Of a DNA stretch of 64,000 nucleotides, positions 25,487 through 45,358 are shown one piece after another. A program made the position numbers and the translations under genes. The notes beneath the pieces are model-generated. The model had not been told where the DNA came from, did not search any database, and saw only the letters and a program-made list of their open reading frames with translations. Source of the DNA: Acidobacteriota bacterium (GTDB lineage Bacteria; Acidobacteriota; Thermoanaerobaculia; UBA5066; Gp7-AA6); NCBI GenBank assembly GCA_039931865.1, contig JBDTRB010000002.1, positions 5,589-69,588 on the forward strand, written 5' to 3'. Within the stretch, counting starts at the first letter, position 1. Every line of letters begins with the position of its first letter.

Positions 25487-25927
25487 ATGGAGCGTGAGTG
25501 GAATGACAGTCAGCCGATCTACCGACAGCTTCGGGATCGCGTGGTCGCCATGATCCTCGACGGCGTTCTCAAAGAGGGCGATCCGCTGCCGTCCGTCCGC
25601 AACGTCGCCGCCGAATACCGCGTCAATCCGATTACGGTCCTGAAGGGCTATCAGGAGCTGGTCGACGAGCGACTCGTCGAGAGCCGGCGGGGCCGGGGGA
25701 TGTTCATCAACGAAGGCGCGCGAGAGCTCCTGCTCCATGCTGAGCGCCAGAAGTTCATCGCGGAACAGTGGCCGCGGATTTCCGCGACGATCCAGCGGCT
25801 CGGGCTGACCCCGAAGGAGCTGCTCGCCGCCGCCGCCGCCGCCACCGCTGCTCCCGCTGCTCCCGCCGCTCCCGCTTCGTCGCCGGGGGGCGCGCGTCCT
25901 TCGAAACCCGAAGAAGAGGCGTCGTAG
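25487..25927 (+). CDS. GntR-family transcriptional regulator (YtrA subfamily)
   Basis: PIYRQLRDRVVAMILDGVLKEGDPLPSVRNVAAEYRVNPITVLKGYQELVDERLVESRRGRGMF is a winged-HTH followed by a short C-terminal helix pair. Confidence 0.85.
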   Translation: MEREWNDSQPIYRQLRDRVVAMILDGVLKEGDPLPSVRNVAAEYRVNPITVLKGYQELVDERLVESRRGRGMFINEGARELLLHAERQKFIAEQWPRISATIQRLGLTPKELLAAAAAATAAPAAPAAPASSPGGARPSKPEEEAS

Positions 25928-25929
25928 CC

Positions 25930-26802
25930 ATGCCCGCCATCGAAGCGCGCGGCCTCCGCAAGAGCTACGGCAAGACCGTCGCCCTGAACGGGATCGACCT
26001 CCGTGTGGAAGAGGGACGCATCCTTGGAATCGTCGGTCCCAATGGCGCCGGCAAGAGCACCGCGCTCCACGCGATTCTCGGCCTCACCGCCTACGAGGGA
26101 GAGCTGAAGGTCCTGGGGCGGGACCCCTGGACGGAACGGGACGAGCTCATGCGCGATGTCTCCTTCATCACCGACGTCGCCGTGATGCCGCGATGGATGA
26201 GGGTTTCCCAGGCGCTCCAGTACCTCGCAGGCGTTCACCCGCGGTTCGATCGCATGAAAGCGGAGGGCTTTCTCAAGAAAACGGACATCAAGCCCGCGAG
26301 CAGGGTGAAGGAGCTTTCCAAGGGCATGGTCACCCAGCTGCATCTCGCGCTGGTGATGGCGGTGGACGCGAGGCTTCTGGTTCTCGACGAGCCCACGCTC
26401 GGCCTCGACATCCTGTTTCGCAAACGGTTCTACGACTCGCTGCTGAACGACTACTTCGATCACAGCCGGACGGTCATCGTGACGACGCACCAGATCGACG
26501 AGATCCAGGACGTTCTGACCGATTTCGTCTTCGTAAACCGCGGCCGCATCGTTCTCGAGTCGAGCATGGAGGCGTTCGAGTCGCGCTACCTGGAGGTGAT
26601 GGTGAGACCTGGGCGCATCGATGAAGCGCGTTCGCTCCATCCAATCCACGAGCGCCCGGTCTTCGGACGCACCATCCTGCTCTTCGACCATGCCGACCGC
26701 GAGCGGCTCGCGGCGCTGGGCGACGTGCGCACGCCGACGATCGCCGATCTCTTCGTCGCCGTGATGGGCGGCGACGCCGGCGCGGCCGGAGGCGCATCAT
26801 GA
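25930..26802 (+). CDS. ABC transporter ATP-binding protein
   Basis: Walker A GPNGAGKST, signature LSKGM, Walker B LLVLDEPT. The ATG lies 2 nt after the GntR stop. Confidence 0.9.
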   Translation: MPAIEARGLRKSYGKTVALNGIDLRVEEGRILGIVGPNGAGKSTALHAILGLTAYEGELKVLGRDPWTERDELMRDVSFITDVAVMPRWMRVSQALQYLAGVHPRFDRMKAEGFLKKTDIKPASRVKELSKGMVTQLHLALVMAVDARLLVLDEPTLGLDILFRKRFYDSLLNDYFDHSRTVIVTTHQIDEIQDVLTDFVFVNRGRIVLESSMEAFESRYLEVMVRPGRIDEARSLHPIHERPVFGRTILLFDHADRERLAALGDVRTPTIADLFVAVMGGDAGAAGGAS

Positions 26803-27743
26803 GCGCGCCCGAAGCCCCACTCGACGCTTCCCGCGATTCGCAGGATGGCGCCCTCCCGCGCATGAACGCGACCCGTCCCCTGGACTGGTCGATCCGGCGC
26901 GAGCTCTGGGAGAACCGTTCTTTGACCATTGCGCCTCTGGCCGTAGCGGGCTTCGTTCTCTTCGTCCTGGTAATTACGACGTTCGGCCTGCCGCGCAAAG
27001 TGCGGGCTCTCCCGACGATGGACCCGGCCCGGCAGCATCTGGTCGCCGCTTCTCCGTTCAGCATCGCGCCGAGCATGATCATGATGACGACGATCCTCGT
27101 CGGGATTTTCTACTCCCTGGACGCGCTGTACGGGGAGCGCCGCGACCGCAGCATCCTGTTCTGGAAGTCGCTCCCGGTCTCCGATCGCACGACGGTTCTC
27201 TCGAAAGCCGCCATCCCGCTCGTCGTGCTGCCGCTGATCGGCCTGGCGCTGAGCTTCGCGGCGCAGGTGGGTGTTCTGCTGTGGGGCAGCGTCATCCTGA
27301 TGGCGAGTCGGGTGAGTCCGGCCACGTGGTACTCCCATCTGCATCTGTTTCAGATGCCGCTCACGCTGGTTTACGGCGTCTTCGCTTTCGCCCTCTGGCA
27401 TGCGCCGATCTACGCCTGGCTGCTCCTCGTGTCCGGCTGGGCGAAGCGCACCCCGCTCCTCTGGGCCGTCCTTCCGTTCGCTGTGCCTGCCGCGGTCGAG
27501 CGCGCCGCCTTCAACACCACGCATATCGGCTCGCTGCTCCGGTACCGCTTCATGGGTGCGATGACGTCGGCCTTCGACATTCCGCCGGGGACGGCGGGGC
27601 AACACGGGATGGTCGTCGATCGCGTCTCGCAGCTCGATCCGGCGAAATTTCTCCGCACGCCGGGCCTGTGGCTCGGGCTGCTCCTCGCGGCGGCGTTCCT
27701 CGCGGCCGCCGTGCGCCTGCGCCGGTATCGGGAGCCGATGTGA
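26799..27743 (+). CDS. ABC-2-type permease-like membrane protein
   Basis: The start overlaps the ATPase stop (ATGA). There are six or more hydrophobic helices. Confidence 0.7.
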   Translation: MSAPEAPLDASRDSQDGALPRMNATRPLDWSIRRELWENRSLTIAPLAVAGFVLFVLVITTFGLPRKVRALPTMDPARQHLVAASPFSIAPSMIMMTTILVGIFYSLDALYGERRDRSILFWKSLPVSDRTTVLSKAAIPLVVLPLIGLALSFAAQVGVLLWGSVILMASRVSPATWYSHLHLFQMPLTLVYGVFAFALWHAPIYAWLLLVSGWAKRTPLLWAVLPFAVPAAVERAAFNTTHIGSLLRYRFMGAMTSAFDIPPGTAGQHGMVVDRVSQLDPAKFLRTPGLWLGLLLAAAFLAAAVRLRRYREPM

Positions 27744-27772
27744 ACGGAGACGGAAATCGAAAGGTGACAATC

Positions 27773-28666
27773 ATGCGAATCAGTCTCCTCCGGCGCGTGA
27801 GCCGCGCCATCGCCCTCCTCGGAACGCTTACTTCTGCCTCGGCTTCGGTCCTCGCGCAAACCTCCCTGATCGAGCAGGGGCGAGCCGCACTCGGACGCGG
27901 CGAGACGGATTCCGCGGTCGGCATCCTCGAGAAGGCGGTCGCTCAGTCGCCGCAGAGCGCCGAGGCGCACTTCGCGCTCGGCAGCGCCTACGGCAACAAA
28001 GCGCAGGCGAGCGGGATGTTCGGCGCTCCCAGGTACGCGTCGAAACTGAAGGGCGAGTTCGAGAAAGCGGGCGCGCTCGACCCGAAGTACATCGAGCCGC
28101 GATTTGGCCTCGTTCAGTTCTACGCGAGCGCGCCCGGGATCATGGGCGGCTCGCACGAGAAGGCGCTCGCGCAGGCGAAGGACCTCAAGGCGATCAACCC
28201 GCTCGCCGGCCACCGCGCGTATGCGTTCATCTACACGCAGCAGAAAAAGCTCGACCTGGCGGAGAAGGAGTATCTGGAGGCGCTTCGGGAAGAGCCGGCG
28301 TCTCCGAAGGCACACAGCTATTTCGGTCAGTACCTCGCGAACTCCGCGAAGAACTACGCGGCGGCCTTTGCGGAGTTCGAATCCGCGCTGAAACTCGACC
28401 CGCAGTACATGCCGGCGTTCTACCACCTCGGGCGCACCGCGTCGCTCGCGAACACGAACCTGGCGCGTGGCGAGGAGGCGCTCAAGCAGTACGTCGCCTA
28501 TACCCCGAAGGAGAGCGAGCCGGCGCTCGCCAACGCGCAATACTTCCTGGGCGACGTTTACGAGAAACAGGGGAGGAAGGCCGAGGCCAGGCAGGCCTAC
28601 ATGGCCGCGCTCAAACTCAATCCATCGCTCGTGAAAGCCGGGGACGCGTTGAAGCGCGTGTCATGA
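27773..28666 (+). CDS. Secreted TPR-repeat protein
   Basis: Internal ATG. Signal peptide MRISLLRRVSRAIALLGTLTSASASVLA. Followed by repeated A..(Y/F).LG.AY....A TPR helices. Confidence 0.75.
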   Translation: MRISLLRRVSRAIALLGTLTSASASVLAQTSLIEQGRAALGRGETDSAVGILEKAVAQSPQSAEAHFALGSAYGNKAQASGMFGAPRYASKLKGEFEKAGALDPKYIEPRFGLVQFYASAPGIMGGSHEKALAQAKDLKAINPLAGHRAYAFIYTQQKKLDLAEKEYLEALREEPASPKAHSYFGQYLANSAKNYAAAFAEFESALKLDPQYMPAFYHLGRTASLANTNLARGEEALKQYVAYTPKESEPALANAQYFLGDVYEKQGRKAEARQAYMAALKLNPSLVKAGDALKRVS

Positions 28667-29427
28667 GGACCGGACAGACGCCGGGCCGAGAGGGGCACAC
28701 CGACCTGCTCGCATCGAGCCAGGAACGGCGGATGTCACTCCAGAAGACCGCCAGATTCGCGGGCCTGCTCTATTTCCTCGCCTGCATCCCGGCGCCCTTC
28801 AGCCTCCTCTACGTGCCCCGCGCCCTGATCGTGACGGGAGACCCCGCGGCGACGGCCTCGAAGATCCTGGGCTCGGAGTGGATGTTCCGGCTCGGCGTCG
28901 CGGGGGAGCTCGTCAACGCGGTCGCGTTTCTGTTCGTCACTCTCGCCCTCTACCGCCTGTTCCGGGGTGTCGACCAGCCAAAGGCCTCCCTCATGGTGAC
29001 GCTGTTCGCTCTATCGGTGCCGGTCTCGTTCGTGAACGCGCTCAACAACATCGCGGCGCTGATCCTTTTCCGCGGCGGGGATTACCTGTCGGCGTTCTCG
29101 AAGCCCCAGCGCGACGCCCTCGCCATGATCTTTCTCCGTCTGCATGCCCACGGGCTCGTCGTCGGCGCGATCTTCTGGGGGCTCTGGCTCTTCCCGTTCG
29201 GGGTTCTCGTCTACAGATCGCGGTTCCTACCTCGGATTCTCGGCGTTCTGCTCGTCATCAACTGCTTCGCATACGTCATCCCCGGTTTCACTTCCGTACT
29301 CCTGCCGCGGTACCGGGAGGCCGTGAATGGGGTCGCGCTTCCTTTCCTCCTCGGCGAACTGGCGATCGCCCTGTGGCTGCTGATTCGCGGCGCCCGGGAA
29401 CGGCCGCCCGCTGAAGCCCCCGCCTGA
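28663..29427 (+). CDS. DUF4386 domain membrane protein
   Basis: ARFAGLLYFLACIPAPFSLLYVP..LIV.GDPAATASKIL.SE..FRLGVAGELV is a paralogue of 35231..35998. The ATG overlaps the TPR stop (ATGA). The alternative start is at 28732. Confidence 0.75.
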   Translation: MRTGQTPGREGHTDLLASSQERRMSLQKTARFAGLLYFLACIPAPFSLLYVPRALIVTGDPAATASKILGSEWMFRLGVAGELVNAVAFLFVTLALYRLFRGVDQPKASLMVTLFALSVPVSFVNALNNIAALILFRGGDYLSAFSKPQRDALAMIFLRLHAHGLVVGAIFWGLWLFPFGVLVYRSRFLPRILGVLLVINCFAYVIPGFTSVLLPRYREAVNGVALPFLLGELAIALWLLIRGARERPPAEAPA

Positions 29428-29489
29428 CGACTGCCGACACTCAACACAGTCACGGTCACGCACACCAACTTGCTCAAAAGGAGACTGAT

Positions 29490-30143
29490 ATGCACTTCCC
29501 GGTCGACATCACCAGCCCGACGCGAACGCTTCTCCACACTCTTCTGTTCTGCCTTCTGGCCCCGGCGACGTTCGCCGCCGCCCAGGAACTTACACCGCCC
29601 GCGCCCGCGCCCGCCGCGTCTGCCTCTTCCACTGCCCCGCGAGTCGGCTTCGTCATGCCGAAGGAGAACGCGGTCCCGGCCTGGCACCGATACATGTACA
29701 TCCAGTTGAAGACGTTCGTCCTCAAGTCCGCGGACCGGATGGGTGAGGAGAACTACAGCTTCAAGCCCACCGAGGCGATCCGCAGCTACGGCCAGGTCCT
29801 CGGCCACATCGCCGACGCGCAGTACGGGTTCTGTTCGATCGCGCTCGGCGAGAAAAACCCGGCCCTGAAGATCGAGCAGACGAAAAGCTCGAAAGCCGAT
29901 CTGACCGCCGCGCTCAAGGATGCCTTTTCCTACTGTGACAGGGCGTACGACGGCATGACCGACGCGACCGGCGCCCAGACCGTGAAGATGTTTGGAACCG
30001 ACGCTCCGAGGCTCGGGGTCCTGATCGTCAATACGGCCCACACGACTGAGCACTACGGCAACCTCGTCACCTACATGCGGCTGAAAAACATCGTGCCGCC
30101 GTCGAGCGATCAGGGGTCCATGGCGCGGCCGCCGAAACAGTAG
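29490..30143 (+). CDS. DinB-family protein with an N-terminal signal sequence
   Basis: AAGGAG RBS. YGQVLGHIADAQYGF and HTTEHYGNLVTYMRL are DinB His-triad-like helices. Confidence 0.8.
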   Translation: MHFPVDITSPTRTLLHTLLFCLLAPATFAAAQELTPPAPAPAASASSTAPRVGFVMPKENAVPAWHRYMYIQLKTFVLKSADRMGEENYSFKPTEAIRSYGQVLGHIADAQYGFCSIALGEKNPALKIEQTKSSKADLTAALKDAFSYCDRAYDGMTDATGAQTVKMFGTDAPRLGVLIVNTAHTTEHYGNLVTYMRLKNIVPPSSDQGSMARPPKQ

Positions 30144-30237
30144 GCCGCCGGGGCTTTTCGCTCAACGAAGGACGACGCACTCGCCTGACAGAAACAGTAG
30201 ACGGGGCCCCGCCGAAGCCGGGGCCCGAGGAGGAAAC

Positions 30238-30981
30238 GTGGAAGCCACCAGCATCGGTCTCATCGAACCGGGAGGCGAAGCTCATCGTGTGTGGGGCAGC
30301 ATCCTTTCGCAGTCCGCCACCGGCGAGCTCGTCGGGATGATGAACTTCGCGAGCCTCGTCGATCTTTACGACGACGCGGAGGACAAGATCGACGCTCTCG
30401 AGCACGCGGCGAGGGAGAAGGCGCATGCCCGCTCGTTCCAGCGGCTCGGGAAGGAGATGGGCATCTGCGTGACGATGAACGTGAACGCGCCTTACTGGAA
30501 GCGGATCCGCACCGCTTTCGTCAAGAGCGCGGGGCGCGGCGATTTCACCGCGTGCCTGATCATCCAGGAGCTGATGCTCGAGTCCTTCGCGGTCTCGATG
30601 TATCGCGCGGTGGCGCGCGTGGCGCCGGGCAAGCTCGGCAGGGCGTACAAAACGATCGCCGCGGAGGAGACGGATCATCTCGAACACGCGATCACGCTCC
30701 TGCAGGAGATCTTCCGGCGCGATCCTGTCGGTCTTCAGCAGAAGGTCGCCGCCGTACACGAGGACGTCATGTCCGTCCTCGCGGAGATGGTCGCGAGGGA
30801 GGACATTCGAGGCGACTGCGAGCTGTGCGGAAAGACGTGCATCAAGCCTTCCCTTCCGCAGGTCAGCCTCGACATCGTCGAGCTCCGCGGCGGGGCGCTC
30901 AACCTCTACCTGAAGTCTCTCGACCGGGTCGGCCTTCCCGGAGACGAGACCCTCCAGTGGATTACGCGGCTGCCGGTGTGA
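30238..30981 (+). CDS. ado: Aldehyde-deformylating oxygenase homologue (ferritin-like di-iron, Ald_deCOase family)
   Basis: GTG start with GAGGAGG upstream. Blocks AREKAHARSF, TACLIIQELMLESFAVSMY and AAEETDHLEH are colinear with cyanobacterial ADO. Ligand-equivalent E30, E60, H63, E115, E144 and H147 are all present. Confidence 0.8.
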   Translation: MEATSIGLIEPGGEAHRVWGSILSQSATGELVGMMNFASLVDLYDDAEDKIDALEHAAREKAHARSFQRLGKEMGICVTMNVNAPYWKRIRTAFVKSAGRGDFTACLIIQELMLESFAVSMYRAVARVAPGKLGRAYKTIAAEETDHLEHAITLLQEIFRRDPVGLQQKVAAVHEDVMSVLAEMVAREDIRGDCELCGKTCIKPSLPQVSLDIVELRGGALNLYLKSLDRVGLPGDETLQWITRLPV

Positions 30982-32165
30982 GCGCCGCCGTTTTCTTCGC
31001 ACGCCCCGTCGCAGCGACGGCGCGGTTCGCGCTCATCGGACATCTCGACAGTTGGGAAAAGACCGCGGCCGTGGTCCAGACGCTGCGAGGCGATCTCGGC
31101 CGCCCGATCTCGGTCCGCGACGTCCGCGAGATCGTCCCGTTTCTGCCGCCTCGGACCGTCTGCCGCGTCACGGTGTTTTCAACGGACGGATCGTCGGCCC
31201 AGGGCGTTTACGTGGATGCGTTTCTCTCACCGGAACGGCTCTGCGACGGATCCGTGCGCCAGAAGATCCAGAGGATCCGGGAGGCGGCCAGCTGCGCGCA
31301 TCGGGAGGGAGCGACCGTCGCGGCGCTCGGCGGTTTCAGCTCGATCGTCCTGGAGGGAAAGGTCGACCTCCTGCCGTTCGACGACAAAGTTGCGTTCACG
31401 ACCGGGAACACTCTGACGGTCGCCTACATCGTGGAAGGGGTCGAGCGCGCGGCGGCGCTCGCGCGACGGCCGCTCGACTCGCAGACCGTGCTCATCCTCG
31501 GTGCGACCGGGGATGTGGGTTCCGGGTGCGCCCGCTATCTCCTGGGGCGCGCCGGGCGACTTCTTCTCTGCGCCCGCAACCCGCACCGCCTGCGCAGGCT
31601 GCAGCGCTCGCTCGCCTCGGACGACACGCGCGTCGCGATCTCGACCGACCCGGACGAGTTTCTGCCCCGGGCGGACGTGGTCATCGCGGCGGCTAGCCTG
31701 TCCGCGCCGCGCTTCTCGCTCCGGTTGGTACGCCCGGACGCGATCGTCTGCGATGCCGGCTACCCGAAGAACATCCTCGCGGACGGGGAGGGCGGTCCGG
31801 TCGTCTTTTTCGGGGGAATGGGGCAGGTGCTCGGAGGACTGGAGCTCGTCCCCGACCTGATGTCAGTCCTCGCTCCGCATCCGGCGCCGAACGTCGTCCA
31901 GGGTTGCCTTCTCGAAGGAATGCTCCTCGCGCTCGAGGGGCGCTCGGAGTCGTTCTCGCGAGGCCGGGGCCACATCGAGCCGGCGCAGGTCGACGAGATC
32001 TGGGCCCTCGCAGAGAAACATGGATTCGCGCTTGCGCCGTTCTTCGACGCCGAGGGGCCCTGCGAGGACCGCCTCACGGCGCTGGCGCCGGCGCGGGCTC
32101 TGCGAAATGCACCCCTTGCTTACCGAGAGGAGAATCCCGTAGACTCCCCTAGGAAACCGATATGA
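30978..32165 (+). CDS. aar: Long-chain acyl-ACP reductase homologue (AAR)
   Basis: GTG overlaps the ADO stop (GTGA). Blocks FALIGHLDSWE, ALGGFSSIVLEG, FTTGNTLTVAYIV, GATGDVGSGCARYL, DAGYPKNI, GCLLEGMLLALEG and FSRGRGHIE..EKHGF are colinear with cyanobacterial AAR. Confidence 0.8.
   Translation: MSAAVFFARPVAATARFALIGHLDSWEKTAAVVQTLRGDLGRPISVRDVREIVPFLPPRTVCRVTVFSTDGSSAQGVYVDAFLSPERLCDGSVRQKIQRIREAASCAHREGATVAALGGFSSIVLEGKVDLLPFDDKVAFTTGNTLTVAYIVEGVERAAALARRPLDSQTVLILGATGDVGSGCARYLLGRAGRLLLCARNPHRLRRLQRSLASDDTRVAISTDPDEFLPRADVVIAAASLSAPRFSLRLVRPDAIVCDAGYPKNILADGEGGPVVFFGGMGQVLGGLELVPDLMSVLAPHPAPNVVQGCLLEGMLLALEGRSESFSRGRGHIEPAQVDEIWALAEKHGFALAPFFDAEGPCEDRLTALAPARALRNAPLAYREENPVDSPRKPI
32111..32161 (+). 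promoter_or_regulatory. padR promoter/leader module (candidate -35 TTGCTT, -10 TAGACT, CCTAGG palindrome, very short leader)
   Basis: TTGCTT-N18-TAGACT is followed by CCCCTAGGAAACCGAT and then ATG. The module is repeated at 7694 and 25208. Confidence 0.5.
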
Positions 32166-32497
32166 GCAAACCCAATGACCTCGTTCAGGGCACTCTCGAC
32201 CTGCTCCTCCTGAAGATCCTGGCGCTGCAGCCCCTGCACGGCTGGGCGATCAGTCTTCGCCTGAGGTCCCTCTCGGGCGACGTCCTGCAGGTGAGCGAAG
32301 GCTCCCTCTACCCGGCGCTGCACAAGCTCGAGCAGGAGGGGTGGATCAAGGCGGAGTGGAAGCAGACGGAAAACAACCGGCGGGCGAAGTTCTATTCGCT
32401 CACCCGGCTCGGAAGACGGGAGCTCGAATCCGAGGCGGCGAACTGGCAGCGCCTGTCATCCGCCATCTCGAGCCTCGTCCAGCTTTCCGAGGCCTAG
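32162..32497 (+). CDS. PadR-family transcriptional regulator (acidobacterial type)
   Basis: GTLDLLLLKILALQPLHGWAISLRL...SGDVLQVSEGSLYPALHKLEQEGWIKAEWK.TENNRRAKFYSLT..GR. Confidence 0.9.
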   Translation: MSKPNDLVQGTLDLLLLKILALQPLHGWAISLRLRSLSGDVLQVSEGSLYPALHKLEQEGWIKAEWKQTENNRRAKFYSLTRLGRRELESEAANWQRLSSAISSLVQLSEA

Positions 32498-32503
32498 GAA
32501 CCC

Positions 32504-35212
32504 ATGCGATTCGAACACTGGTGGTTCACGGCCCCGCTGAGGGTGAAGTCGATCCTCCTGCGACGCCGGGTCGAGGGGGAGCTCGACGAGGAGCTCCGGT
32601 TCCACCTGGAGCAGAAGATCGAGGAAGGCATCACGGAGGGACTTTCTCCCGAAGAGGCGCGTTCCCGCGCGCTTCGAGCGATGGGCGGCCTCGAGCAGAA
32701 AAAAGAGGAGATGCGGGACATGCGACGGATCCACTGGCTGACCGATTTCGTGGACGACGTGCGCTACGCGTTCCGCAGCCTGCGCCGAACCCCGGGCCTC
32801 GCCGTGTTCGTGGTGATCACGCTCGCGCTGGGGATCGGAATGACGACGACGCCCTTCAGCATGCTCGACGCGCTGATCTTCCGGCCGTACCCCGTCCCGA
32901 ATCCCGGCGAGATCGTCACCCTGGTGAGCACCTCCCGCGACAGCCGCTTCGAGAGCTTCTCTTACCGCGAGTATCTCGACATCCGCAACAAGACGAAGAG
33001 CTACAACGCCGTCGTTGCGAACGCGAGACTCGAAGCCGTCGGCTTCACTGCCGAGCCCGGATCGACGCCGCTCGTCCGCCCGGGCCTGATGGTTTCCGGC
33101 AACTACTTTCAGGGGCTCGGCGTGAAGATGCAGCTCGGTCGCGGGTTTCGCGAGGATGAAGACAGGGTCCCCGGGCGCGAGGCCGTGGTGGTGCTCGGGC
33201 CGGATTTCTGGAAACGTGAATTCGCCGGCAGCCGGTCCGCCGTCGGCAGAGTCATCCGATTGAACGGCACGAACTTCACCGTGATCGGCGTCGCTCCGGA
33301 CTCCTTCCCCGGTATGCAGATCTTCTCGCGGCCCGGCTTTTACATGCCGCTCGCGATGGCGCGGGTCTTCTCGACCGACCCGTTGAAGAATCTCCTCGAA
33401 GACCGGGATGACCGCGAGTTGACGCTGCGGGCGCGTCTGAAACCGGGCACGCCGCTTTCTCAGGCGCGGAACGAGCTCGCCGTGCTGGCTCGCGACTTCC
33501 AACGTGAATATCCGAAGGTCAACCGCGACCGCGGCGCGGCCGTTCACACGCAATTCGAAATGCGAACCCAGGACAACGACGTCAACTGGAAATTCAGCGT
33601 GATTTTCTCGGTCCTCGCGCTCGCTGTCCTCCTGGTCGCGTGCACGAATGCCGCCGGCCTTCTTCTCGCGCGCGGCCGCTCGAGGACCAGGGAAATTGCC
33701 GTGAGACTCGCGATCGGCGCCGGCCGCTTCCGGCTGGTCCGGCTTCTGCTCACCGAGAGTCTCGTCCTGGCATGCCTCGGCGGACTCGGCGGGATCGCCG
33801 TCGGGTACCTCGGCATCCGCTTCATGGGCAAATTCAGCATCCCGTCCGAGCTGCCCGTCACCATTCCGTTTCGGATGGACACCCGCGTGCTGATCGCCAG
33901 CGTCGCGCTGTCCATGTTGAGCGCGCTGTTCTGCGGCCTGGCGCCGGCGCTTCAGAGCACACGAACGGACGTGGTTACCGGGCTGAAGTCTGCGGACGTG
34001 GACGTGCCGGGCCGCAGACACCTGTGGGGCCGGAACGCGCTGGTCGTGGCGCAGATCTCCATGTCCCTGATGCTCCTGGCGGCCTCGTTTCTGATGGCTC
34101 GGGGCTTCAACCACGACATCCAGGAGGGAGCGGGATACGCGAAGGACGCGAAGGACCACGTGCTGATGGTCAAGTTCGATCCGCGGCTCGTGCAATACAA
34201 CGCGGCTCAGACGGCGCAGTTCTACAAGCTTCTGTCGGACCGCGTGCGCCAGACGTCCGGGGTTTTGAGCACCGCTTTCACACAGAACCCGCCTCTCGGT
34301 CTGGGCGACTTCGACCGTGTCGCGTTCGTGCCGGAGGGATTTCAGATTCCGCGCGGGCGGGAAAACTTCACGTCGATGATGGATACCATCGACGACGGTT
34401 TCTTCCAGACCATGAGTGTGCCGATCCTGCGCGGGCGCGGCTTCCTGGCGTCGGACATGGCAGGCGCGCCTCGTGTCGCCGTCGTCAACGACCATTTCGC
34501 CAATCACTACTGGCCGGGCGCGCCGACCGTGCTCGGCAAACGTTTCCGGCTCGGAAGCGCCTCTGGTGAGCCGGTCGAGATCGTCGGCGTCGCTCAGTCC
34601 ATCAAGTATGGCGACGCTTTCGGAACGGCCTCGGATTTCGTGTACCTGCCGGTCCTTCAGAATCCCGTCCCCCGACTCGCCATGCTGGTGCGGACGAACG
34701 GCGATCCCCTCCAACTGGTCAAGCCGGTGAAGGATGTCGTCCGGAAGCTCGATGCGAACATGCCGATGCTCGAGACCAGGACCTATGAGGACCTTTACCG
34801 CTACGCGATCGTGGACGGCCCGGGGGTGGCCGTCCGGCTCGTGGGCACCCTGGGCGCCGTGGGCCTCGTGCTCGCCATCGCGGGCCTTTATGGCCTGGTC
34901 GCCTACAACGTTGCCCGCAGGACGCGCGAGATCGGCATCCGCATGGCGATTGGCGCTTCGCCCCTCGACGTCCTGCGGCTGGTCATGGGGAAGGGGCTGA
35001 TGCTCGTGAGCGTCGGGACGGTGATCGGGTTTGCGCTCGGAGTCGGGCTCGAGCGCCTGCTGAATTCGATGTTGTTCAACGCCGGCGGCTTCGCCTGGAC
35101 GGTGTATGTGATCGTAGTGCCGGCGATGGTCCTGATCACCATGCTCGCGGCCTACGTTCCGGCGCGCAAGGCATCCCGCATCGCTCCGACGATTGCCCTC
35201 CGATATGAGTAG
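32504..35212 (+). CDS. ADOP-family duplicated FtsX/MacB-type permease
   Basis: A 902-aa protein. The N-terminal RRRVEGELDEELRFHLE is typical of the ADOP family. There are two MacB_PCD + FtsX (REIA(V/I)R.A(I/L)GA) halves. Confidence 0.9.
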   Translation: MRFEHWWFTAPLRVKSILLRRRVEGELDEELRFHLEQKIEEGITEGLSPEEARSRALRAMGGLEQKKEEMRDMRRIHWLTDFVDDVRYAFRSLRRTPGLAVFVVITLALGIGMTTTPFSMLDALIFRPYPVPNPGEIVTLVSTSRDSRFESFSYREYLDIRNKTKSYNAVVANARLEAVGFTAEPGSTPLVRPGLMVSGNYFQGLGVKMQLGRGFREDEDRVPGREAVVVLGPDFWKREFAGSRSAVGRVIRLNGTNFTVIGVAPDSFPGMQIFSRPGFYMPLAMARVFSTDPLKNLLEDRDDRELTLRARLKPGTPLSQARNELAVLARDFQREYPKVNRDRGAAVHTQFEMRTQDNDVNWKFSVIFSVLALAVLLVACTNAAGLLLARGRSRTREIAVRLAIGAGRFRLVRLLLTESLVLACLGGLGGIAVGYLGIRFMGKFSIPSELPVTIPFRMDTRVLIASVALSMLSALFCGLAPALQSTRTDVVTGLKSADVDVPGRRHLWGRNALVVAQISMSLMLLAASFLMARGFNHDIQEGAGYAKDAKDHVLMVKFDPRLVQYNAAQTAQFYKLLSDRVRQTSGVLSTAFTQNPPLGLGDFDRVAFVPEGFQIPRGRENFTSMMDTIDDGFFQTMSVPILRGRGFLASDMAGAPRVAVVNDHFANHYWPGAPTVLGKRFRLGSASGEPVEIVGVAQSIKYGDAFGTASDFVYLPVLQNPVPRLAMLVRTNGDPLQLVKPVKDVVRKLDANMPMLETRTYEDLYRYAIVDGPGVAVRLVGTLGAVGLVLAIAGLYGLVAYNVARRTREIGIRMAIGASPLDVLRLVMGKGLMLVSVGTVIGFALGVGLERLLNSMLFNAGGFAWTVYVIVVPAMVLITMLAAYVPARKASRIAPTIALRYE

Positions 35213-35230: not shown

Positions 35231-35998
35231 GTGCCCGGGTGCGCTTCCATCCTGACAACCGCGCCCGTTCGATCCGGGTGGGCACCGCCGGCCATCGAGC
35301 CGGCGCAACTCCGCGCGGCGCGCGTCCTCGGATTCCTCTACGTGCTTCAGATGGCGGTCGCCGTCTTCGGACAGTCTTTCGTCCGGCAGCGGCTGATCGT
35401 CGCCGACCCGGTACAGACGGCGCAGAACATCGTCGGATCCGAGCGCCTGTTCCGGCTGTCAATTGCCGGAGATCTGTTCGTTTACGCCGGGGTGATTGTC
35501 CTGGCGTGGGCCTTCTATGTCGTGGTCCGACCCGTCGACCGGAATCTGGCGCTCCTCGCGGTGCTCTTCCGGCTCGCGGAAACCGCCGTGCTCTCGGTGG
35601 CCACCATCCAATCCCTGGTGGCGCTCCGGCTTCTGAGCGGGGCCGGCGAGTTGAGCAGCTTTTCCCACGCCCAGCTGCAATCTCTGGTCAAGCTGGCACT
35701 CCACACCCAGGGACTCGGGATGTCCGTCGGTTTCATCCTTCTGGGGCTCGGTTCGACGGTGTTCGCGTGGCTTCTCTGGAAGTCGCGCTACGTCCCTCGA
35801 GTCATTGCCGGATGGGGGATCTTCTCGTCGCTTCTGCTGGCGGCCATCACGATGGCGGCGCTGGTGTTTCCCGGACTCGGAACCGCTCTGGGAATGACGT
35901 ACATGGCCCCGATGGGCCTCTACGAAGTGGGCCTCGGTGTCTGGCTGCTCGTCAAGGGGATCGAAGTGCCTCTCACCGATTCCGCCGCGCCGAACTGA
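35231..35998 (+). CDS. DUF4386 domain membrane protein (paralogue of 28663)
   Basis: GTG start with GGGAG upstream. RVLGFLYVLQMAVAVFGQSFV...LIVADPVQTAQNIVGSERLFRLSIAGDL. Confidence 0.75.
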   Translation: MPGCASILTTAPVRSGWAPPAIEPAQLRAARVLGFLYVLQMAVAVFGQSFVRQRLIVADPVQTAQNIVGSERLFRLSIAGDLFVYAGVIVLAWAFYVVVRPVDRNLALLAVLFRLAETAVLSVATIQSLVALRLLSGAGELSSFSHAQLQSLVKLALHTQGLGMSVGFILLGLGSTVFAWLLWKSRYVPRVIAGWGIFSSLLLAAITMAALVFPGLGTALGMTYMAPMGLYEVGLGVWLLVKGIEVPLTDSAAPN

Positions 35999-39485: not shown

Positions 39486-41440
39486 CTAGGGTGTGCAGAC
39501 GCCGATCTGGGGAACGAGTGACGTGAACGGAGTCCCGGTGATTCCGGTGATCGTGATGTCGTCGATGTCCCAGCCGGGAGCTCCGGTCGATTCATCGGCG
39601 CCGATTCGGAAGCGGATCCGCACGTCCTGTCCGTTGTAAGCCGTGCCGAGGTCGAGCGTGGCCGTCGAAAAGTTCGGCCAGCCCGCGATGCGATTCACGA
39701 AGGCGGGTCGGCTCGCGCCGATCGGAGCGCTTGTCACGGCGTTCGTCGAGCCGTTATAGAAGGCCGGGGAGGTTCCGACGGCCGTCCATGCGCCGCCATT
39801 GACGCTGATCTCGACGACGCCGCCGTCCCAGCCACCCGCCTCGAACGAGAACCGGTGCTTGAAGGAGATCCCGAGAGAGGTGCTTCCGACGCGCATCGTG
39901 GGCGAGGTGAGCGACTGCTGATCGGGAAGGTCCCCCTTCACGTCGTCTCTTTGACCGTTGTTGTTCGGGCCCCAGAAGACGTGCTGGACGGGTGAGAGAG
40001 CCCGGCGCTGCCACCGGGTGATGTTCGGATCTTCAGAGGGGTCCCCGGAGGCAGTCCAGACCGGACTGGCGGACTCGAATGACTCCGTCGCCGAGGACTG
40101 AAGCTGTTCGTTGTAGTTCAGTCGGAACGTGGAGTCGAGGTTGAAAGGCGAGGGGAGCCCGAGCTCCGGAGCCTGGAACGCGATCTTGAACGTGGTCTGC
40201 TCCATCCCCAACGCGCCGTTCAAGGTCACCGGGACGAAGCCCGTGCTGTGGCCCTTTTTCTGGAGCGGCGGGAACTGGATCACGTTGCCCTGCGGGAACG
40301 TAACGTTCGGGTTGCTGGAGGTGACCGTCAGCGTCCCCTGGTTGACGTTGTTCGGCCCCTGATTCACGAGGGTGACTTTCAGACGGCCCGTTTCTCCGTT
40401 GTCGAGGACGCCGTCCAGGTCGCAGGAGGCGACGTCGTCGGACAGCGTGACGCTCCCGAGCTCGATCTGGGAAAGCTCCCAGATGCCGCGGCCGTAAGTC
40501 GCGAGGCGAATGAACCCGCCGTCGGGCGGCATGTAGATGTCATTGACGCGAACGGTCGGCAGCCCGTTGCCGAAGGGGGCCCAGTTCGCCCCGCCATCGG
40601 TCGTGCTGTAAATGCCGACGTGGGTCGCGGCGTAAAGCGTGTTGTGAGTCGAATCCCTCGGGTCGATATACACGCGCGTGACCGGCAGATCGGGAAGTCC
40701 GTTCTGCTTTGCGACGAACGTGGCGGTCGACCAGGAGGCAGTCGGGTTGGCGATGGAGGCTTTGATCACGCGGACGGCACCCGTTGCCTGCGCGACGGAG
40801 GTGATCCAGAGATTCTGGTTGTCCTGCCAGGTCACGTTGGTCGTGAAGCCCTGGTAACCCGGCGCGCTCGCGATCAGGTCAACGTCGGTCCAGGTCGCGC
40901 CGCCGTCGGTCGTGATGTCGAGGAATCCTCCCGCCGCGCCGACCGCGATGCGGTTGAGGTCGGTCGGGCTCACACCCAGGTTGTAAGGGCTGGAACGGAA
41001 CCGGCGCGCGGGCGGGAGCCCGAGCGAGGGGACGCCGACGGCGGAACCGATCAGCAGCCAGTTCAATCCGCCGTTGTTGCTTCTCCACACGCGAGCGTTG
41101 GTGAAATGAAAGAAGACGCGCCCCGTCGCGTCGAGGCGCCGGAGGCGCGGGCACGATACAGGTGAAGAAGCCGAAGCCCACGTCGGAGATTCCCGAGGTC
41201 GCCGCAGCCCAGTTCTGAAACCTGTCCGGCGGATTGTTGCTCAGGTTGGTGCGCATCGAAGAGCCTTGCGCGCTGCCGAGGACCGTATTCGTGTTGTCCT
41301 GGCTGTAGGCTGCCCCCATCCCGTCTCCGCCGATCACCTGGTCGTGGGTGCCGCTGTTGTCGGTGCGCAGCCGCGTCCCGTTGTCCTGCAGTCCGCCGAT
41401 GACGAGATTCGGGAACCCCGACGCATCTGTGCGGGCAGCC
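39486..41440 (-). pseudogene. BNR/Asp-box beta-propeller protein with a C-terminal lectin-like domain; 5'-truncated and frameshifted
   Basis: Asp-box-like motifs RSNNGGLNW, TTDGGATWT and TTDGGANWA. The upstream continuation (..GGLQDNGT..GGDGMGAAYSQDN..) is in another frame (shift near 41150) and has no start or signal peptide. Confidence 0.65.
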
Positions 41441-41523
41441 CGGGTCCCTGCTGATTCGCTAATTCGCTGATTCGAGGCTCGCGAATCCGGGACGCGAAGC
41501 GTGGCCGCTGCTCTCAGCCGACC

Positions 41524-44136
41524 TCAATGCCCGCCGGACTCCGACCAGATCGGTGACGACCAGGCCTGGTGGCCGTCCGCCTGCGTCACACGGACGTAGT
41601 AGCTCGATTCGCCGGCAGGCGGCGCCTTGTCCTCGACCGTGAACGTCACGACACGGGTATCGGCAACGGGCATTCGGCGGCCTCCCTGCGGGTCCGACGG
41701 CTCGTAGATCAGAAAAACGCCCTCCGCCGCGTCGGGCGCCTGCTCGAGCCGCACCGCCGCGAACGTGTCGATCAGGTTGCGGACGATCTCGACCCGGTCG
41801 ATCGCCGCGGTGCCTTCGATCCGGACCGTCATCGGAAGCGGACCGTGCGTGTGAATGCGAGACCCCATCGGCGCGCCCCCGGCCGTGAATTCCAGCACGA
41901 TGCGCGCTCCCGTCGTCGCATAGTTGCGCCGCTTGCGGATAGCGTCGAAGAGGCTCTCGCGATCGAGCCGCTCCGCGAGCACCGCGGTCAGGCCGCCCTC
42001 GCCCGGACTCAGGTGGTGCGTATCGCTCGCGCCCATCACGCCGACGTGTCGCCCGAGACGCAGCGCGTCCTGATACTGATGACCCGGGACCTGCCGCCGC
42101 CCTTCCCGCGGATTGCCGAAGAATTCGTACCGCCCGTGCCAGGACGCGATCTCGAAGTTGGGCTCGAGCGTCTCGTCGAACGCGGCCGCGGGATTCCAGC
42201 GCCCCCACGTCGCATTGCCCGTGTGGTGGGGCGACACGATCCCATCGTGCTCGCGCAAATGCGCGTAGAGCTTCTCGATCGTGTCGCCTTCGGGCTCCGC
42301 GGAGCTCAGGATCGGACCTCCCTCGTCACGCTGCAGCACGACGCGATGCCCGTACGCGGAACCGGCGGTCCACTCCCACCCGGTCAGGCTCACGAAGCGG
42401 CCCGGCTCGTCGAACACGCGCGACGTCAGTTGCAGTTCGGCGTACTCGGTCGCCTGGAGCCGCCCCATCTCGGTGTGATCGCTCACGACGTCGAAGTCGA
42501 GGCCGAGACGGTCGCGGGACAATTCCATGAGCTGATCGGGAAGACCGGTCTTCGCGTCGCTGAGAATGCTGTGGCTGTGCGGGTCGCCGAAATACACGTG
42601 CCAGCGCCCGGTTCCCGCGGTCGCGGTGCGCGGGGGAGGCCCCGGCGTCATCGGCTCGCCGCTGCGCGAGGCCTCATACGACTCGGTCGGCGCCGGCGCC
42701 AGCGGCGCGGGCGTCCACCCGTCGGCGGGCGCCCTGAGCGCGCCGGTCAGGATCACGTTCGGCTGGCCTCGCGTGTCGTACGCGTCGACGTCGCCCGCGA
42801 CTTCCGCCGTCTGCCCCGGGGCCGGGAGCGCTTGCCCCTCCCACGCGATCTGCAGCCTGCCGTCCGGCGCCAACGCCGCCGATGGAAACTCGTCCCGCCC
42901 CGGCGAGAACGTGGTCAGGTGCAGCTCCCGCGACCAGCGGCGGCCGTCGTGAATCCGCGCCCAGAGGTCGAAGTTGTGCGCGCCGGTCGCGTCCGTGCGC
43001 CAGATCACCCACGCGCGATCGCGGTCATCGAGGAAGATCGATGGGTAGTTCGACGTCTGCTTCCAGTGCCAGTACGGATCGACCGCGTCCCTCGGCGTCT
43101 TGTTGACCGCGCCAAAGCTGACCTGGCCCGGGAGCGCTCCTCGCGCGACACCCGGAGGAGCCAGGAATTTCCCGTTTCTCCATGCGCGCACGAAAGCGTC
43201 TCCGGAATGCCGGTCGGCTCGGAAGGCCTCGCCCGCGTGGCCGCGCATCGAGTTCCACGCGATCCAGAGAGTTCCATTCTTCGCGCACGCAATCGACGGT
43301 GAGTCATCGATCGACGCGTCGGAGGTGACGGCGAGTGGGGCTTCGACGGCGGGAGCACGGCCGTTCGCGGCGCGCGCGCGGGCGAGCCAGATGTCGTAGC
43401 TGCCCGCCCGCGTCGAATCCCAGGCGAGAAAGACGCCGCCGTCAGGAGGAGCGGCGAGGGCAGGCCGGCGGTCGCTGCCCGCGCTCGCAATCTCGGAAGG
43501 GGGAGACCAGCCATCGCCGGCGCGAGCGACGAGCTCGATCGCGAAACCGCGGGCGCGCGCAACCTCCCACGCGATCCAGAGCCGCCCCGACGAATCGGCG
43601 GCAGTGGCGGGGTGGAGCGCGTCCACGTCCGGCGCGGAGACGCGCTCCTCCGGCGACCACGCGCCGCGTTCGTGCCGGCGCGAGAAGACCGCCCACCTGC
43701 CGCTGCCGCCGCGCCGCCCGTGCCAGAACGCCCAGAGCGTTCCGTTTCCATCGAGGACGAGCCGCGCGCCGCTCTCGGCGCCGTCACCCGTGGCGAGCGT
43801 CTCCTCCGGCGACCAGCCTCCCGGCGACTCGCGCCGCCGCACGACGACGGAGTCGCGCCCCCGTTCGTTCGACGTGTACGCGATCCAGAGCCTCCCGGCG
43901 CGATCGAACGCTGCCGACGGGTACTTGTCGTAGCGACCCGGCGCGGAGAGCGACTCCACCGCGCGGAGCGGCTCGAACGGGGGAGCTTCGGTCGCCGCTT
44001 TGCCCCTGGGAGAAAAGAGAAGAAAAGACGCGATGGCGGCGAGGGCGAATCCCGGCCCCGAACGTGAAGCCGCGCTCCCGCCGCGCCGCCGCCGTTCTCC
44101 GACCATCCTCGCCTGTCGAGACGCGCTTTCGGGCAC
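41524..44136 (-). CDS. Secreted protein: N-terminal propeller-like repeats (GRLWIAW) fused to a PHP/DUF3604-like metallohydrolase domain
   Basis: Signal/TM FALAAIASFLLF. Repeated G.LW.AW units. The C-terminal half has HVYFGDPHSHS, VVSDHTE, SPHHTG, GASDTHH and RRNYATTGARI. Confidence 0.75.
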   Translation of the reverse strand: MPESASRQARMVGERRRRGGSAASRSGPGFALAAIASFLLFSPRGKAATEAPPFEPLRAVESLSAPGRYDKYPSAAFDRAGRLWIAYTSNERGRDSVVVRRRESPGGWSPEETLATGDGAESGARLVLDGNGTLWAFWHGRRGGSGRWAVFSRRHERGAWSPEERVSAPDVDALHPATAADSSGRLWIAWEVARARGFAIELVARAGDGWSPPSEIASAGSDRRPALAAPPDGGVFLAWDSTRAGSYDIWLARARAANGRAPAVEAPLAVTSDASIDDSPSIACAKNGTLWIAWNSMRGHAGEAFRADRHSGDAFVRAWRNGKFLAPPGVARGALPGQVSFGAVNKTPRDAVDPYWHWKQTSNYPSIFLDDRDRAWVIWRTDATGAHNFDLWARIHDGRRWSRELHLTTFSPGRDEFPSAALAPDGRLQIAWEGQALPAPGQTAEVAGDVDAYDTRGQPNVILTGALRAPADGWTPAPLAPAPTESYEASRSGEPMTPGPPPRTATAGTGRWHVYFGDPHSHSILSDAKTGLPDQLMELSRDRLGLDFDVVSDHTEMGRLQATEYAELQLTSRVFDEPGRFVSLTGWEWTAGSAYGHRVVLQRDEGGPILSSAEPEGDTIEKLYAHLREHDGIVSPHHTGNATWGRWNPAAAFDETLEPNFEIASWHGRYEFFGNPREGRRQVPGHQYQDALRLGRHVGVMGASDTHHLSPGEGGLTAVLAERLDRESLFDAIRKRRNYATTGARIVLEFTAGGAPMGSRIHTHGPLPMTVRIEGTAAIDRVEIVRNLIDTFAAVRLEQAPDAAEGVFLIYEPSDPQGGRRMPVADTRVVTFTVEDKAPPAGESSYYVRVTQADGHQAWSSPIWSESGGH

Positions 44137-44240
44137 GGGAGACTCCTCTCGCTTGTGGAATCCAAGGATGGGAAGCGCCGTAATTTATCGCAGACGCCGC
44201 GCGTCACGTATCATCCGCGGAATCCCGGAGGTGGAGCGCG

Positions 44241-44813
44241 ATGAATTCCAGACTGGCAACAGCATTTTTCGCGGTCGCCCTGGCGACGACTCGAGGGGTG
44301 TCCGCGCAGGCATCCGATCCGGCCCGGATTGCAGCGCAGCGAGAGGGCATGGCCGCGCTCGCGTTCATGGACGGTGTCTGGCGCGGGCCGGCGATGACGA
44401 CGCTTCCGTCGGGAGACAAGCACGCCGTCACGCAGACGGAGCGGATCGGCCCGTTCCTGGATGGATCCGTGAAGGTCCTCGAAGGACGCGGGTATGACGC
44501 GGACGGAAAAGCCACCTTCAACGCTCTCGGGATCATCTCCTTTGATCCCAACACCCGCGGTTATTCCATGCGGTCCTATGCCCTGGGCCGGTCGGGCGAC
44601 TTCACGGTCCGGCGCACCGACGACGGATTCGTCTGGGAAATCCCCGCAGGGCCGACGACGATTCGCTACACCGCAACGGTGAAGGACGGGAAGTGGCGCG
44701 AAGTCGGAGACCGGATCGTGGCTGGCAAAGAGCCCGTCCGGTTTTTCGAGATGAACCTCGTCCGTATTGGCGACAGCGACTGGCCGGGAGCGGGCGCGGT
44801 CCGTCCGAAGTAG
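44241..44813 (+). CDS. Secreted DUF1579 domain protein
   Basis: GGAGG RBS. Signal MNSRLATAFFAVALATTRGVSA. LAFMDGVWRGPA .. blocks are typical of DUF1579. Confidence 0.75.
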   Translation: MNSRLATAFFAVALATTRGVSAQASDPARIAAQREGMAALAFMDGVWRGPAMTTLPSGDKHAVTQTERIGPFLDGSVKVLEGRGYDADGKATFNALGIISFDPNTRGYSMRSYALGRSGDFTVRRTDDGFVWEIPAGPTTIRYTATVKDGKWREVGDRIVAGKEPVRFFEMNLVRIGDSDWPGAGAVRPK

Positions 44814-44884
44814 CGCCGTGGTCCTGTAGAGGCGCCGGGCGGAGACGTTGCCCGAAGGCTGACCTCTGCTCCGCGCGGCACCGG

Positions 44885-45358
44885 CTATGCGTTCTGGTGC
44901 GCTCGCTCGAGCTCCGCGATCTCGATCTTGTTCATCTGCATCATCGCTTTCATGACCGCCTGAGATTTTTTCGGGTCTTTGTCGCTCATCAACTCCATCA
45001 ACGCGCCCGGAACGATCTGCCACGAGAGGCCGTAGCGGTCCTCCAGCCAGCCGCACCGGCCGGGCTTGCCTCCTTCGGAGAGGGCGTCCCAGAACCTGTC
45101 GACCTCCGGCTGGGTCTTGCAGTGGACGACGAACGAAACGGCGGGAGTGAAATGGTGGAGCGGGCCGCCGTTCATCGCGACGAACTCCTCTCCTCGGAGC
45201 TCAAAGCTGACGGTCATCGCGGAGCCTTTCGGACCCGGGCCTCCTTCCCCGTAGCGGCTGACGGAGAGGATCCTGGAGTCTTCGAACACGGACGTATACA
45301 GGTTCGCCGCCTCTTCGGCTCTGTCGTCGAACCACAGGAACGGTGTGATTGTCTTCAT
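44885..45358 (-). CDS. VOC-superfamily protein, PhnB/YjdN-like
   Basis: ITPFLWFDD.AEEAANLYTSVF.DS.I......G......GSAMTVSFEL.G.EF.A.NGGP ... WL.DRYGLSWQIVP. Confidence 0.85.
   Translation of the reverse strand: MKTITPFLWFDDRAEEAANLYTSVFEDSRILSVSRYGEGGPGPKGSAMTVSFELRGEEFVAMNGGPLHHFTPAVSFVVHCKTQPEVDRFWDALSEGGKPGRCGWLEDRYGLSWQIVPGALMELMSDKDPKKSQAVMKAMMQMNKIEIAELERAHQNA

Follow-up and report, generated by a model that had tools for sequence, protein, structure and literature searches.

Alkane synthesis by an acyl-ACP reductase (AAR) and an aldehyde-deformylating oxygenase (ADO) is usually presented as a cyanobacterial trait. Here, we describe an ADO-like and an AAR-like gene in a 64,000-nucleotide stretch of an Acidobacteriota bacterium (contig JBDTRB010000002.1, positions 5,589 to 69,588 of the forward strand; the whole stretch is called the window below). 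The two overlapping open reading frames (ORFs) encode full-length homologues of ADO (ORF1) and AAR (ORF2) and, judged from sequence and fold comparisons, the locus is a conserved two-gene module from a deep-branching, non-cyanobacterial sister family of the AAR/ADO pair. Its features, in window coordinates, are as follows.

30227..30233, + strand: Shine-Dalgarno sequence GAGGAGG, 4 nt 5' of the ORF1 start (read from the sequence)
30238..30981, + strand: ORF1, ADO-like ferritin-fold di-iron protein, 247 amino acids, GTG start
30325-30327, 30415-30417, 30424-30426, + strand: ORF1 ligand codons E30, E60, and H63 (by alignment)
30580-30582, 30667-30669, 30676-30678, + strand: ORF1 ligand codons E115, E144, and H147 (by alignment)
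30790..30843, + strand: ORF1 Cys loop, residues 185-202, with C194-x2-C197-x3-C201 (by family alignment)
30978..32165, + strand: ORF2, AAR-like NADPH-dependent acyl-thioester reductase, 395 amino acids (activity assigned by homology)
31500-31520, + strand: ORF2 NADPH loop GATGDVG, residues 175-181 (by alignment)
31905-31907, + strand: codon of ORF2 catalytic Cys310 (by alignment with AAR C294)

The TGA stop of ORF1 and the GTG start of ORF2 share the sequence GTGA at 30978..30981, and the ado gene lies directly 5' of the aar gene on the same strand, as in cyanobacteria; both points had been made in an initial annotation of the locus. The GTG of ORF2 is its sole in-frame start ahead of the conserved FALIGH motif. 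The start of ORF1 is fixed because the arrangement AGGAGGAAAC-(G/A)TG-GAAGCC is kept in seven related loci (L001-L007), with ATG as the start codon in two.

ORF1 passed the gathering threshold (28 bits) of PF11266 (Ald_deCOase; 55.2 bits; E value, 1.2e-14), with a match that spans residues 29-166 only, and matched TIGR04059 with an E value of 6e-15. All 20 PDB chains matched by sequence at an E value of ≤1 were ADO (3e-10 to 1.5e-7). An AlphaFold model of ORF1 (built from 92 homologues; predicted local distance difference test score [pLDDT], 93.5) has the eight-helix ferritin-like fold of cyanobacterial ADO (PF11266/TIGR04059; PDB 4rc5 and 2oc5), with which ORF1 is colinear over its whole length. 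Its top 26 Foldseek matches in the PDB were ADO (template modeling [TM] score, 0.82-0.88; root mean square deviation, ~2.5 Å; ~230 columns), and the next family, PaaA/PaaC, reached a TM score of only ~0.6. All six di-iron ligand positions are occupied, as initially read: E30, E60, H63, E115, E144, and H147 coincide in alignments with the ligands of the PDB ADOs and of P0365/P0363, and form two EX(28-29)EXXH motifs that are invariant in 92 family members. Y122 is likewise invariant in the family alignment, and positions 86/87 (Y/W, versus F/F in Synechococcus elongatus ADO) stay aromatic; PDB entries 4rc6 and 4rc7 carry mutations at these positions. Global identity between ORF1 and cyanobacterial-type ADO representatives was 21-24%.

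Four PDB entries (5uwz, 5ux2, 5uxi, and 6d9f, the last from Kitasatospora setae) are titled "Protein N with aldehyde deformylating oxidase activity." The titles point to an ADO-activity screen reaching past cyanobacteria; no paper behind these entries was found in the literature searched.

ORF2 matched TIGR04058 over its full length (151.6 bits; E value, 3.2e-44) and the PDB AAR 6jzq over residues 17-351 (E value, 1e-33). Its AlphaFold model (pLDDT, 90; last ~30 residues of low confidence) has the three-domain fold of AAR (Foldseek versus 6jzu_A: E value, 1e-27; TM score, 0.86; 31% identity), and identity to S. elongatus AAR was 33% across 324 columns. In the alignment, Cys310 takes the place of C294, the catalytic, acyl-accepting residue of S. 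elongatus AAR (residue roles of AAR are taken from PMC7089970), and GATGDVG (G175-G181) aligns with GATGDIG; Cys310 and the GATGD loop are invariant in 82 ORF2 homologues, and Y247, R314, and H7 (S. elongatus AAR numbering) are also conserved in ORF2 and across its family. ORF2 differs from AAR in a family-specific C-terminal extension (LAPFF..G). An exact-sequence look-up of ORF2 matched no record. ADO and AAR thus outrank every other family for ORF1 and ORF2 in both sequence and fold, the crystal structures of the two cyanobacterial enzymes being the best matches of the respective models, and the full-length homology and conserved catalytic Cys claimed in the initial annotation stand.

ORF2 could instead off-load or modify a non-fatty-acyl thioester in the manner of the N-terminal domain of PigE (prodigiosin biosynthesis) or the carmabin TAD, with ORF1 as a generic ferritin-like small-molecule oxidase. 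Both of those domains belong to the AAR-like fold superfamily and act on thioester substrates; ORF2 scored 97.6 bits against the PigE-type reductase-aminotransferase model (cut-off, 850) and matched the PigE N-terminal domain with an E value of 2e-20 (PDB 4ppm), and the carmabin TAD (PDB 9e4s) was its second-best fold match. We nevertheless consider this explanation improbable. AAR is far the better match (151.6 versus 97.6 bits; TM score, 0.86 versus 0.64-0.70), and the best ORF1 matches are all ADO. PigE and the carmabin TAD are domains of larger multidomain enzymes, whereas ORF2 stands alone, and no polyketide synthase (PKS), nonribosomal peptide synthetase (NRPS), carrier-protein, or aminotransferase gene adjoins the pair in any architecture.

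ORF1 differs from cyanobacterial ADO in a 17-residue insertion (residues 185-202) carrying C194-x2-C197-x3-C201, where cyanobacterial-type ADO sequences have a gap. All 92 aligned family members keep the three Cys residues and H174; H150, too, is invariant in the ORF1 family. The segment is coil in the AlphaFold model, and by alignment the insertion falls at the start of ADO helix 7, the AAR-docking helix. In more distant ADO-like clades the motif reads Cx3Cx2Cx6C, aligned position 190 holding the fourth Cys, and H174 is missing in five of the seven fourth-Cys sequences examined. This alternation of Cys3+His and Cys4 across clades fits a four-ligand metal or iron-sulfur (Fe-S) site, which the Cys loop and H174 probably form. 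Rubrerythrin-type proteins offer a conceptual parallel, in that a single polypeptide combines a ferritin-like di-iron center with a putative metal site rich in Cys. Unlike them, ORF1 has an ADO-like overall fold and an internal Cys loop in place of a CxxC...CxxC rubredoxin domain (its single CxxC lies inside the CxxCxxxC loop), and its score against PF02915 (21.3 bits) lies under the gathering threshold of 22.8. Among the distant ADO-like sequences, one clade (P0270, P0306, P0311, P0275, P0285, P0305, and P0309) has the six ligands and a C-terminal Cys-Cys tail (...GCC or ...SCC), and three of its members (P0270, P0306, and P0311) have an N-terminal fusion domain of ~300 amino acids in which a glycine-rich motif resembling S-adenosylmethionine (SAM) methyltransferases was seen by eye.

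GC content at third codon positions (GC3) was 0.855 for ORF1 and 0.821 for ORF2, versus 0.78-0.88 for 14 other genes in the window, and in its tetranucleotide distance from the window as a whole the locus ranked at the 33rd percentile of equal-sized windows. The same gene neighborhood is found in seven independent Thermoanaerobaculia/Acidobacteriota metagenome-assembled genomes (MAGs) at 81-98% identity. Ratios of nonsynonymous to synonymous substitution (dN/dS) were 0.07-0.15 for ORF1 against relatives in its clade (0.23 for the comparison with L012, which is more distant) and 0.13-0.25 for ORF2 against its relatives. The pair has a native composition and evolves under purifying selection; it is not a decaying remnant. 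Recent horizontal gene transfer from cyanobacteria, a cyanobacterial contaminant, or an assembly chimera would account for the distant homology and the shared ado-aar order, and for nothing else. An identity to cyanobacterial-type proteins of only 21-24% and 33% argues against all three, as do the neighbor-like GC3, the tetranucleotide profile, and the syntenic MAGs, and we regard them as excluded for practical purposes; a cyanobacterial contaminant had also been considered unlikely in the initial annotation.

Relatives were sought at several depths. A word-indexed search (E value, ≤0.001) returned 257 homologues of ORF1 and more than 3,000 of ORF2, including more distant relatives, and 1.84 billion representatives clustered at 50% identity, scanned exhaustively with HMMER, yielded 139 ADO-like clusters at the same threshold. 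Only 3 of the 30 mostly full-length ADO-like representatives that were read looked cyanobacterial in type, so most of the ADO-like diversity recovered lies outside cyanobacteria. Among contigs from one genome per species, 107 stretches encode a relative, from which 80 loci (L001-L080) were retained: by record title, 38 Acidobacteriota, 35 Bacteroidota, 3 Planctomycetota, 2 Gemmatimonadota, 1 Ignavibacteriales, and 1 gammaproteobacterial MAG. The closest, L001, is a Thermoanaerobaculia MAG 98% identical to the window. Cultured carriers are found among the Bacteroidota: Algoriphagus zhangzhouensis DSM 25035 (L043), Tamlana haliotis, Flavobacterium sp. ZS1P14, Robiginitalea sp. SC105, and Catalimonadaceae JC749.

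An AAR-like gene adjoins the ADO-like gene in 78 of the 80 loci, across six lineages, and one of the exceptions is cut by the contig end. The other, L022:6836-9505 (Bryobacterales), has GNAT, ADO-like, and DUF3419 genes and is the sole uncut locus without a reductase gene. Pairwise distances among ORF1-like and ORF2-like proteins were correlated (r = 0.87; maximum under label permutation, 0.10), which shows only that the two are inherited as a unit, since shared ancestry alone also gives a correlation. Two operon copies per genome occur in some Chitinophagaceae/Bacteroidota (L034 and L070 on contig CAWHHG010000002.1; L073 and L076 in one MAG).

Many of the homologues already bear such database names as "fatty aldehyde decarbonylase" and, in Acidobacteriota MAGs, "long-chain fatty aldehyde decarbonylase" and "fatty aldehyde-generating acyl-ACP reductase." Metagenome surveys already count annotated ADO/AAR genes outside cyanobacteria (PMC13488336, PMC10176705); a 2026 survey annotated faar/ado in Actinobacteriota, Myxococcota, Bacteroidota, and Pseudomonadota MAGs, none of them expressed (PMC13488336). 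Non-cyanobacterial occurrence has been noticed at annotation level, and function there is assumed. The locus is an ordinary, vertically fitting copy of this widespread, automatically annotated family, and therefore the "new occurrence" proposed in the initial annotation does not hold; wide annotation of such pairs in Acidobacteriota had been named there as grounds for refuting it. By alignment, the family itself is a distinct AAR/ADO variant, with its own Cys insertion, a remodeled docking surface, and a characteristic operon.

Upstream of the pair lies a block of five genes (25768..30143, + strand; Pfam matches), and downstream lie a regulator and a permease; the DUF4386, DinB, PadR, and permease genes are as initially read.

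~25768 (approximate start), + strand: ABC ATPase, first gene of the upstream block (Pfam)
26799-27743, + strand: ABC-2 membrane protein (Pfam)
about 27785-28666, + strand: TPR protein (Pfam)
28663-29427, + strand: DUF4386 protein (Pfam)
29490-30143, + strand: DinB protein (Pfam), with an N terminus that looks signal-peptide-like by eye
32162..32497, + strand: PadR-family regulator, downstream of ORF2
32504..35212, + strand: MacB_PCD/FtsX permease, ADOP-type, 7 nt after padR (local context)

The ORF2 stop and the padR ATG share ATGA, so padR is probably cotranscribed with the pair in this genome, where ORF1, ORF2, padR, and the permease gene look translationally chained. Within the Thermoanaerobaculia clade the upstream block keeps its link to the pair, having the same order in L001-L007 and being rearranged yet adjacent in L010. 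PadR and the permease were considered as functional partners and rejected, since they lie downstream of the pair in L001 and L008 only.

The predicted fold of the 105-nt intergenic RNA before ORF1 is no more stable than those of shuffled sequences (z = 0.28), which gives no sign of a structured 5' leader, and no sigma-70-like promoter was found upstream of ORF1. Terminator-like matches were at chance level, and the window gave no hits in Rfam and tRNA scans. A second DUF4386 paralogue (35231-35998, 3' of the permease gene) flanks the locus opposite the one 5' of the DinB gene. Elsewhere, the window encodes three large Ser/Thr protein kinases (1339-3927, 4624-7134, and 14832-16541), two of them with PD40, TPR, or TolB_N C-terminal regions, which is typical acidobacterial gene content. 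GC content peaks at 0.69-0.71 in positions 41000-45000, over an 870-amino-acid ORF containing DUF3604, and AT skew makes strong excursions at 11-14 kb (−0.19) and 60-64 kb (+0.18 to +0.25).

We put the probability that ORF2 generates an aldehyde that is then oxidized at the ORF1 di-iron center at about one-half, and the substrate, aldehyde intermediate, product, and Cys-loop role of this scheme are inferred. Cys310 of ORF2 would accept a fatty acyl group carried by acyl-ACP or acyl-CoA, and the thioester would be reduced with NADPH bound at GATGDVG, releasing a fatty aldehyde; hand-over of the aldehyde from AAR to ADO is documented for the cyanobacterial complex (PMC7089970). The carboxylate-bridged di-iron center of ORF1, with O2 and external electrons, would then oxidize the aldehyde at C-1. 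The Cys3(+His174) loop, which would take the place of the acidic helix-7 surface that cyanobacterial ADO uses for AAR binding, probably binds a metal or Fe-S center, and this center may either relay electrons to the di-iron site or form a new docking surface for ORF2. The organism, unlike cyanobacterial hosts of ADO, is a heterotroph without a photosynthetic ferredoxin supply. In the lineage of the window the pair stands alone, next to a predicted ABC-2 exporter, and because it stands alone we judge a Cn-1 hydrocarbon plus formate, as with ADO, to be the single most likely ORF1 product there. That a free alkane is the end product is a tentative proposition, to which we give a little less than even odds.

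Several observations weigh against this scheme. The first concerns the match to the family models: the PF11266 threshold was passed and the TIGR E values are significant, but the bit scores fall well below the equivalog cut-offs (55.8 versus 222.65 for TIGR04059; 151.6 versus 449.7 for TIGR04058), and with identities of 21-24% and 33% the initial label "cyanobacterial-type" has to be dropped. The docking surfaces differ as well. In the S. elongatus complex, an acidic ADO helix 7 (E196, E200, D201, E208, and E211) binds AAR at R73, R79, K80, and R118 (PMC7089970). By alignment, the acidic helix has no equivalent in ORF1, where the region is broken by the Cys loop, and the four AAR residues correspond in ORF2 to S, Q, R, and D, with variation among family members. 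Three of the four basic contacts (R73, R79, and R118) are lost, and K80 alone stays basic (R or K). Docking of ORF1 with ORF2, if any, would use a mode unlike the cyanobacterial one. Proteins with the AAR fold can also catalyze other reactions, the PigE reductase domain and the carmabin TAD being examples, and the ORF1 step presumes that O2 reaches the organism. Finally, the cluster includes a GNAT protein of 350-400 amino acids in 58 of the 80 loci and a DUF3419 (BtaA-like) protein in 54, and it is hard to see what either would do with a free alkane. Full-text literature searches, with most subscription journals outside their reach, turned up annotation-based counts but no biochemical study of family members outside cyanobacteria. 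Given the Cys insertion, the lost docking residues, and the GNAT/DUF3419 context, a product different from or more elaborate than the C15-C17 alkanes considered in the initial annotation has to be taken seriously.

The neighborhoods of the relatives suggest what such a product might be. The commonest order is GNAT-ADO-AAR-DUF3419 (e.g., L043:6896-11779 and L018:3605-10936), an operon typical of most Bacteroidota and Terriglobia/Bryobacterales genomes (loci within L012-L080), and a gene for a fatty-acid-desaturase-like membrane protein is present in 32 of the 80 loci and one for an MMPL transporter in 8. DUF3419 has, according to the betaine-lipid literature, the fold of BtaA, the SAM:diacylglycerol 3-amino-3-carboxypropyl transferase of betaine-lipid synthesis. 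No literature linking DUF3419 to ADO or AAR was found in the papers searched; PDB searches with the GNAT partner gave weak GNAT matches only (E value, ~0.01) and with the DUF3419 partner none. This context argues that the aldehyde-derived product in most lineages ends up in a more complex exported lipid instead of being released as an alkane.

The pair could on that basis be the core of a complex-lipid pathway, in which the ADO-like enzyme would carry out a non-deformylating or alcohol-forming oxidation of the aldehyde made by the AAR-like enzyme, and the BtaA-like and GNAT acyltransferase partners would elaborate the product into an exported amino-lipid, their genes lying elsewhere in the genome or lost in the lineage of the window. 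Cyanobacterial ADO was reportedly found by Aukema et al. in 2013 to yield Cn-1 alcohols and aldehydes as side products also, so that an alcohol-forming ORF1 supplying the acceptor for a BtaA-like enzyme is conceivable on chemical grounds. The GNAT and DUF3419 genes are still present in L012, which among the Thermoanaerobaculia is the closest relative beyond the clade of the window. The chemistry proposed is, however, conjecture, and tblastn with representatives found no GNAT, DUF3419, desaturase, or MMPL homologue in the window, nor were any present in the flanks of L001-L011. The pair stands alone in 19 of the 80 loci (the Thermoanaerobaculia clade L001-L011, Planctomycetota, and some Acidobacteriaceae and Bryobacterales), and the strong purifying selection on it in this state implies that it functions without adjacent partners. 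For the locus described here we hold a complex-lipid role to be rather unlikely, though it is the main rival of the alkane-type scheme.

Across the family, the two outcomes can be joined in one broader proposal, which we offer as speculative and somewhat doubtful: the pair may be the core of a widespread lipid pathway of soil and aquatic heterotrophs among the Acidobacteriota, Bacteroidota, Planctomycetota, and Gemmatimonadota, in which an ADO-like di-iron enzyme with a Cys3-His metal or Fe-S center and an AAR-like enzyme with non-cyanobacterial docking make hydrocarbons or, with the GNAT and BtaA-like partners, a new alkyl or amino lipid. An ADO with a built-in electron-transfer site would be of interest to biofuel engineers because electron supply limits ADO. 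Cultured carriers exist (Algoriphagus, Tamlana, Flavobacterium, and Robiginitalea), so either outcome is directly testable. Metagenome surveys score any ADO- or AAR-annotated gene as "alkane production." If hydrocarbons are made, abundant soil and freshwater heterotrophs would join the short-term hydrocarbon cycle; if another product is made, today's automatic annotations would be wrong, and so would the ecological conclusions based on them.

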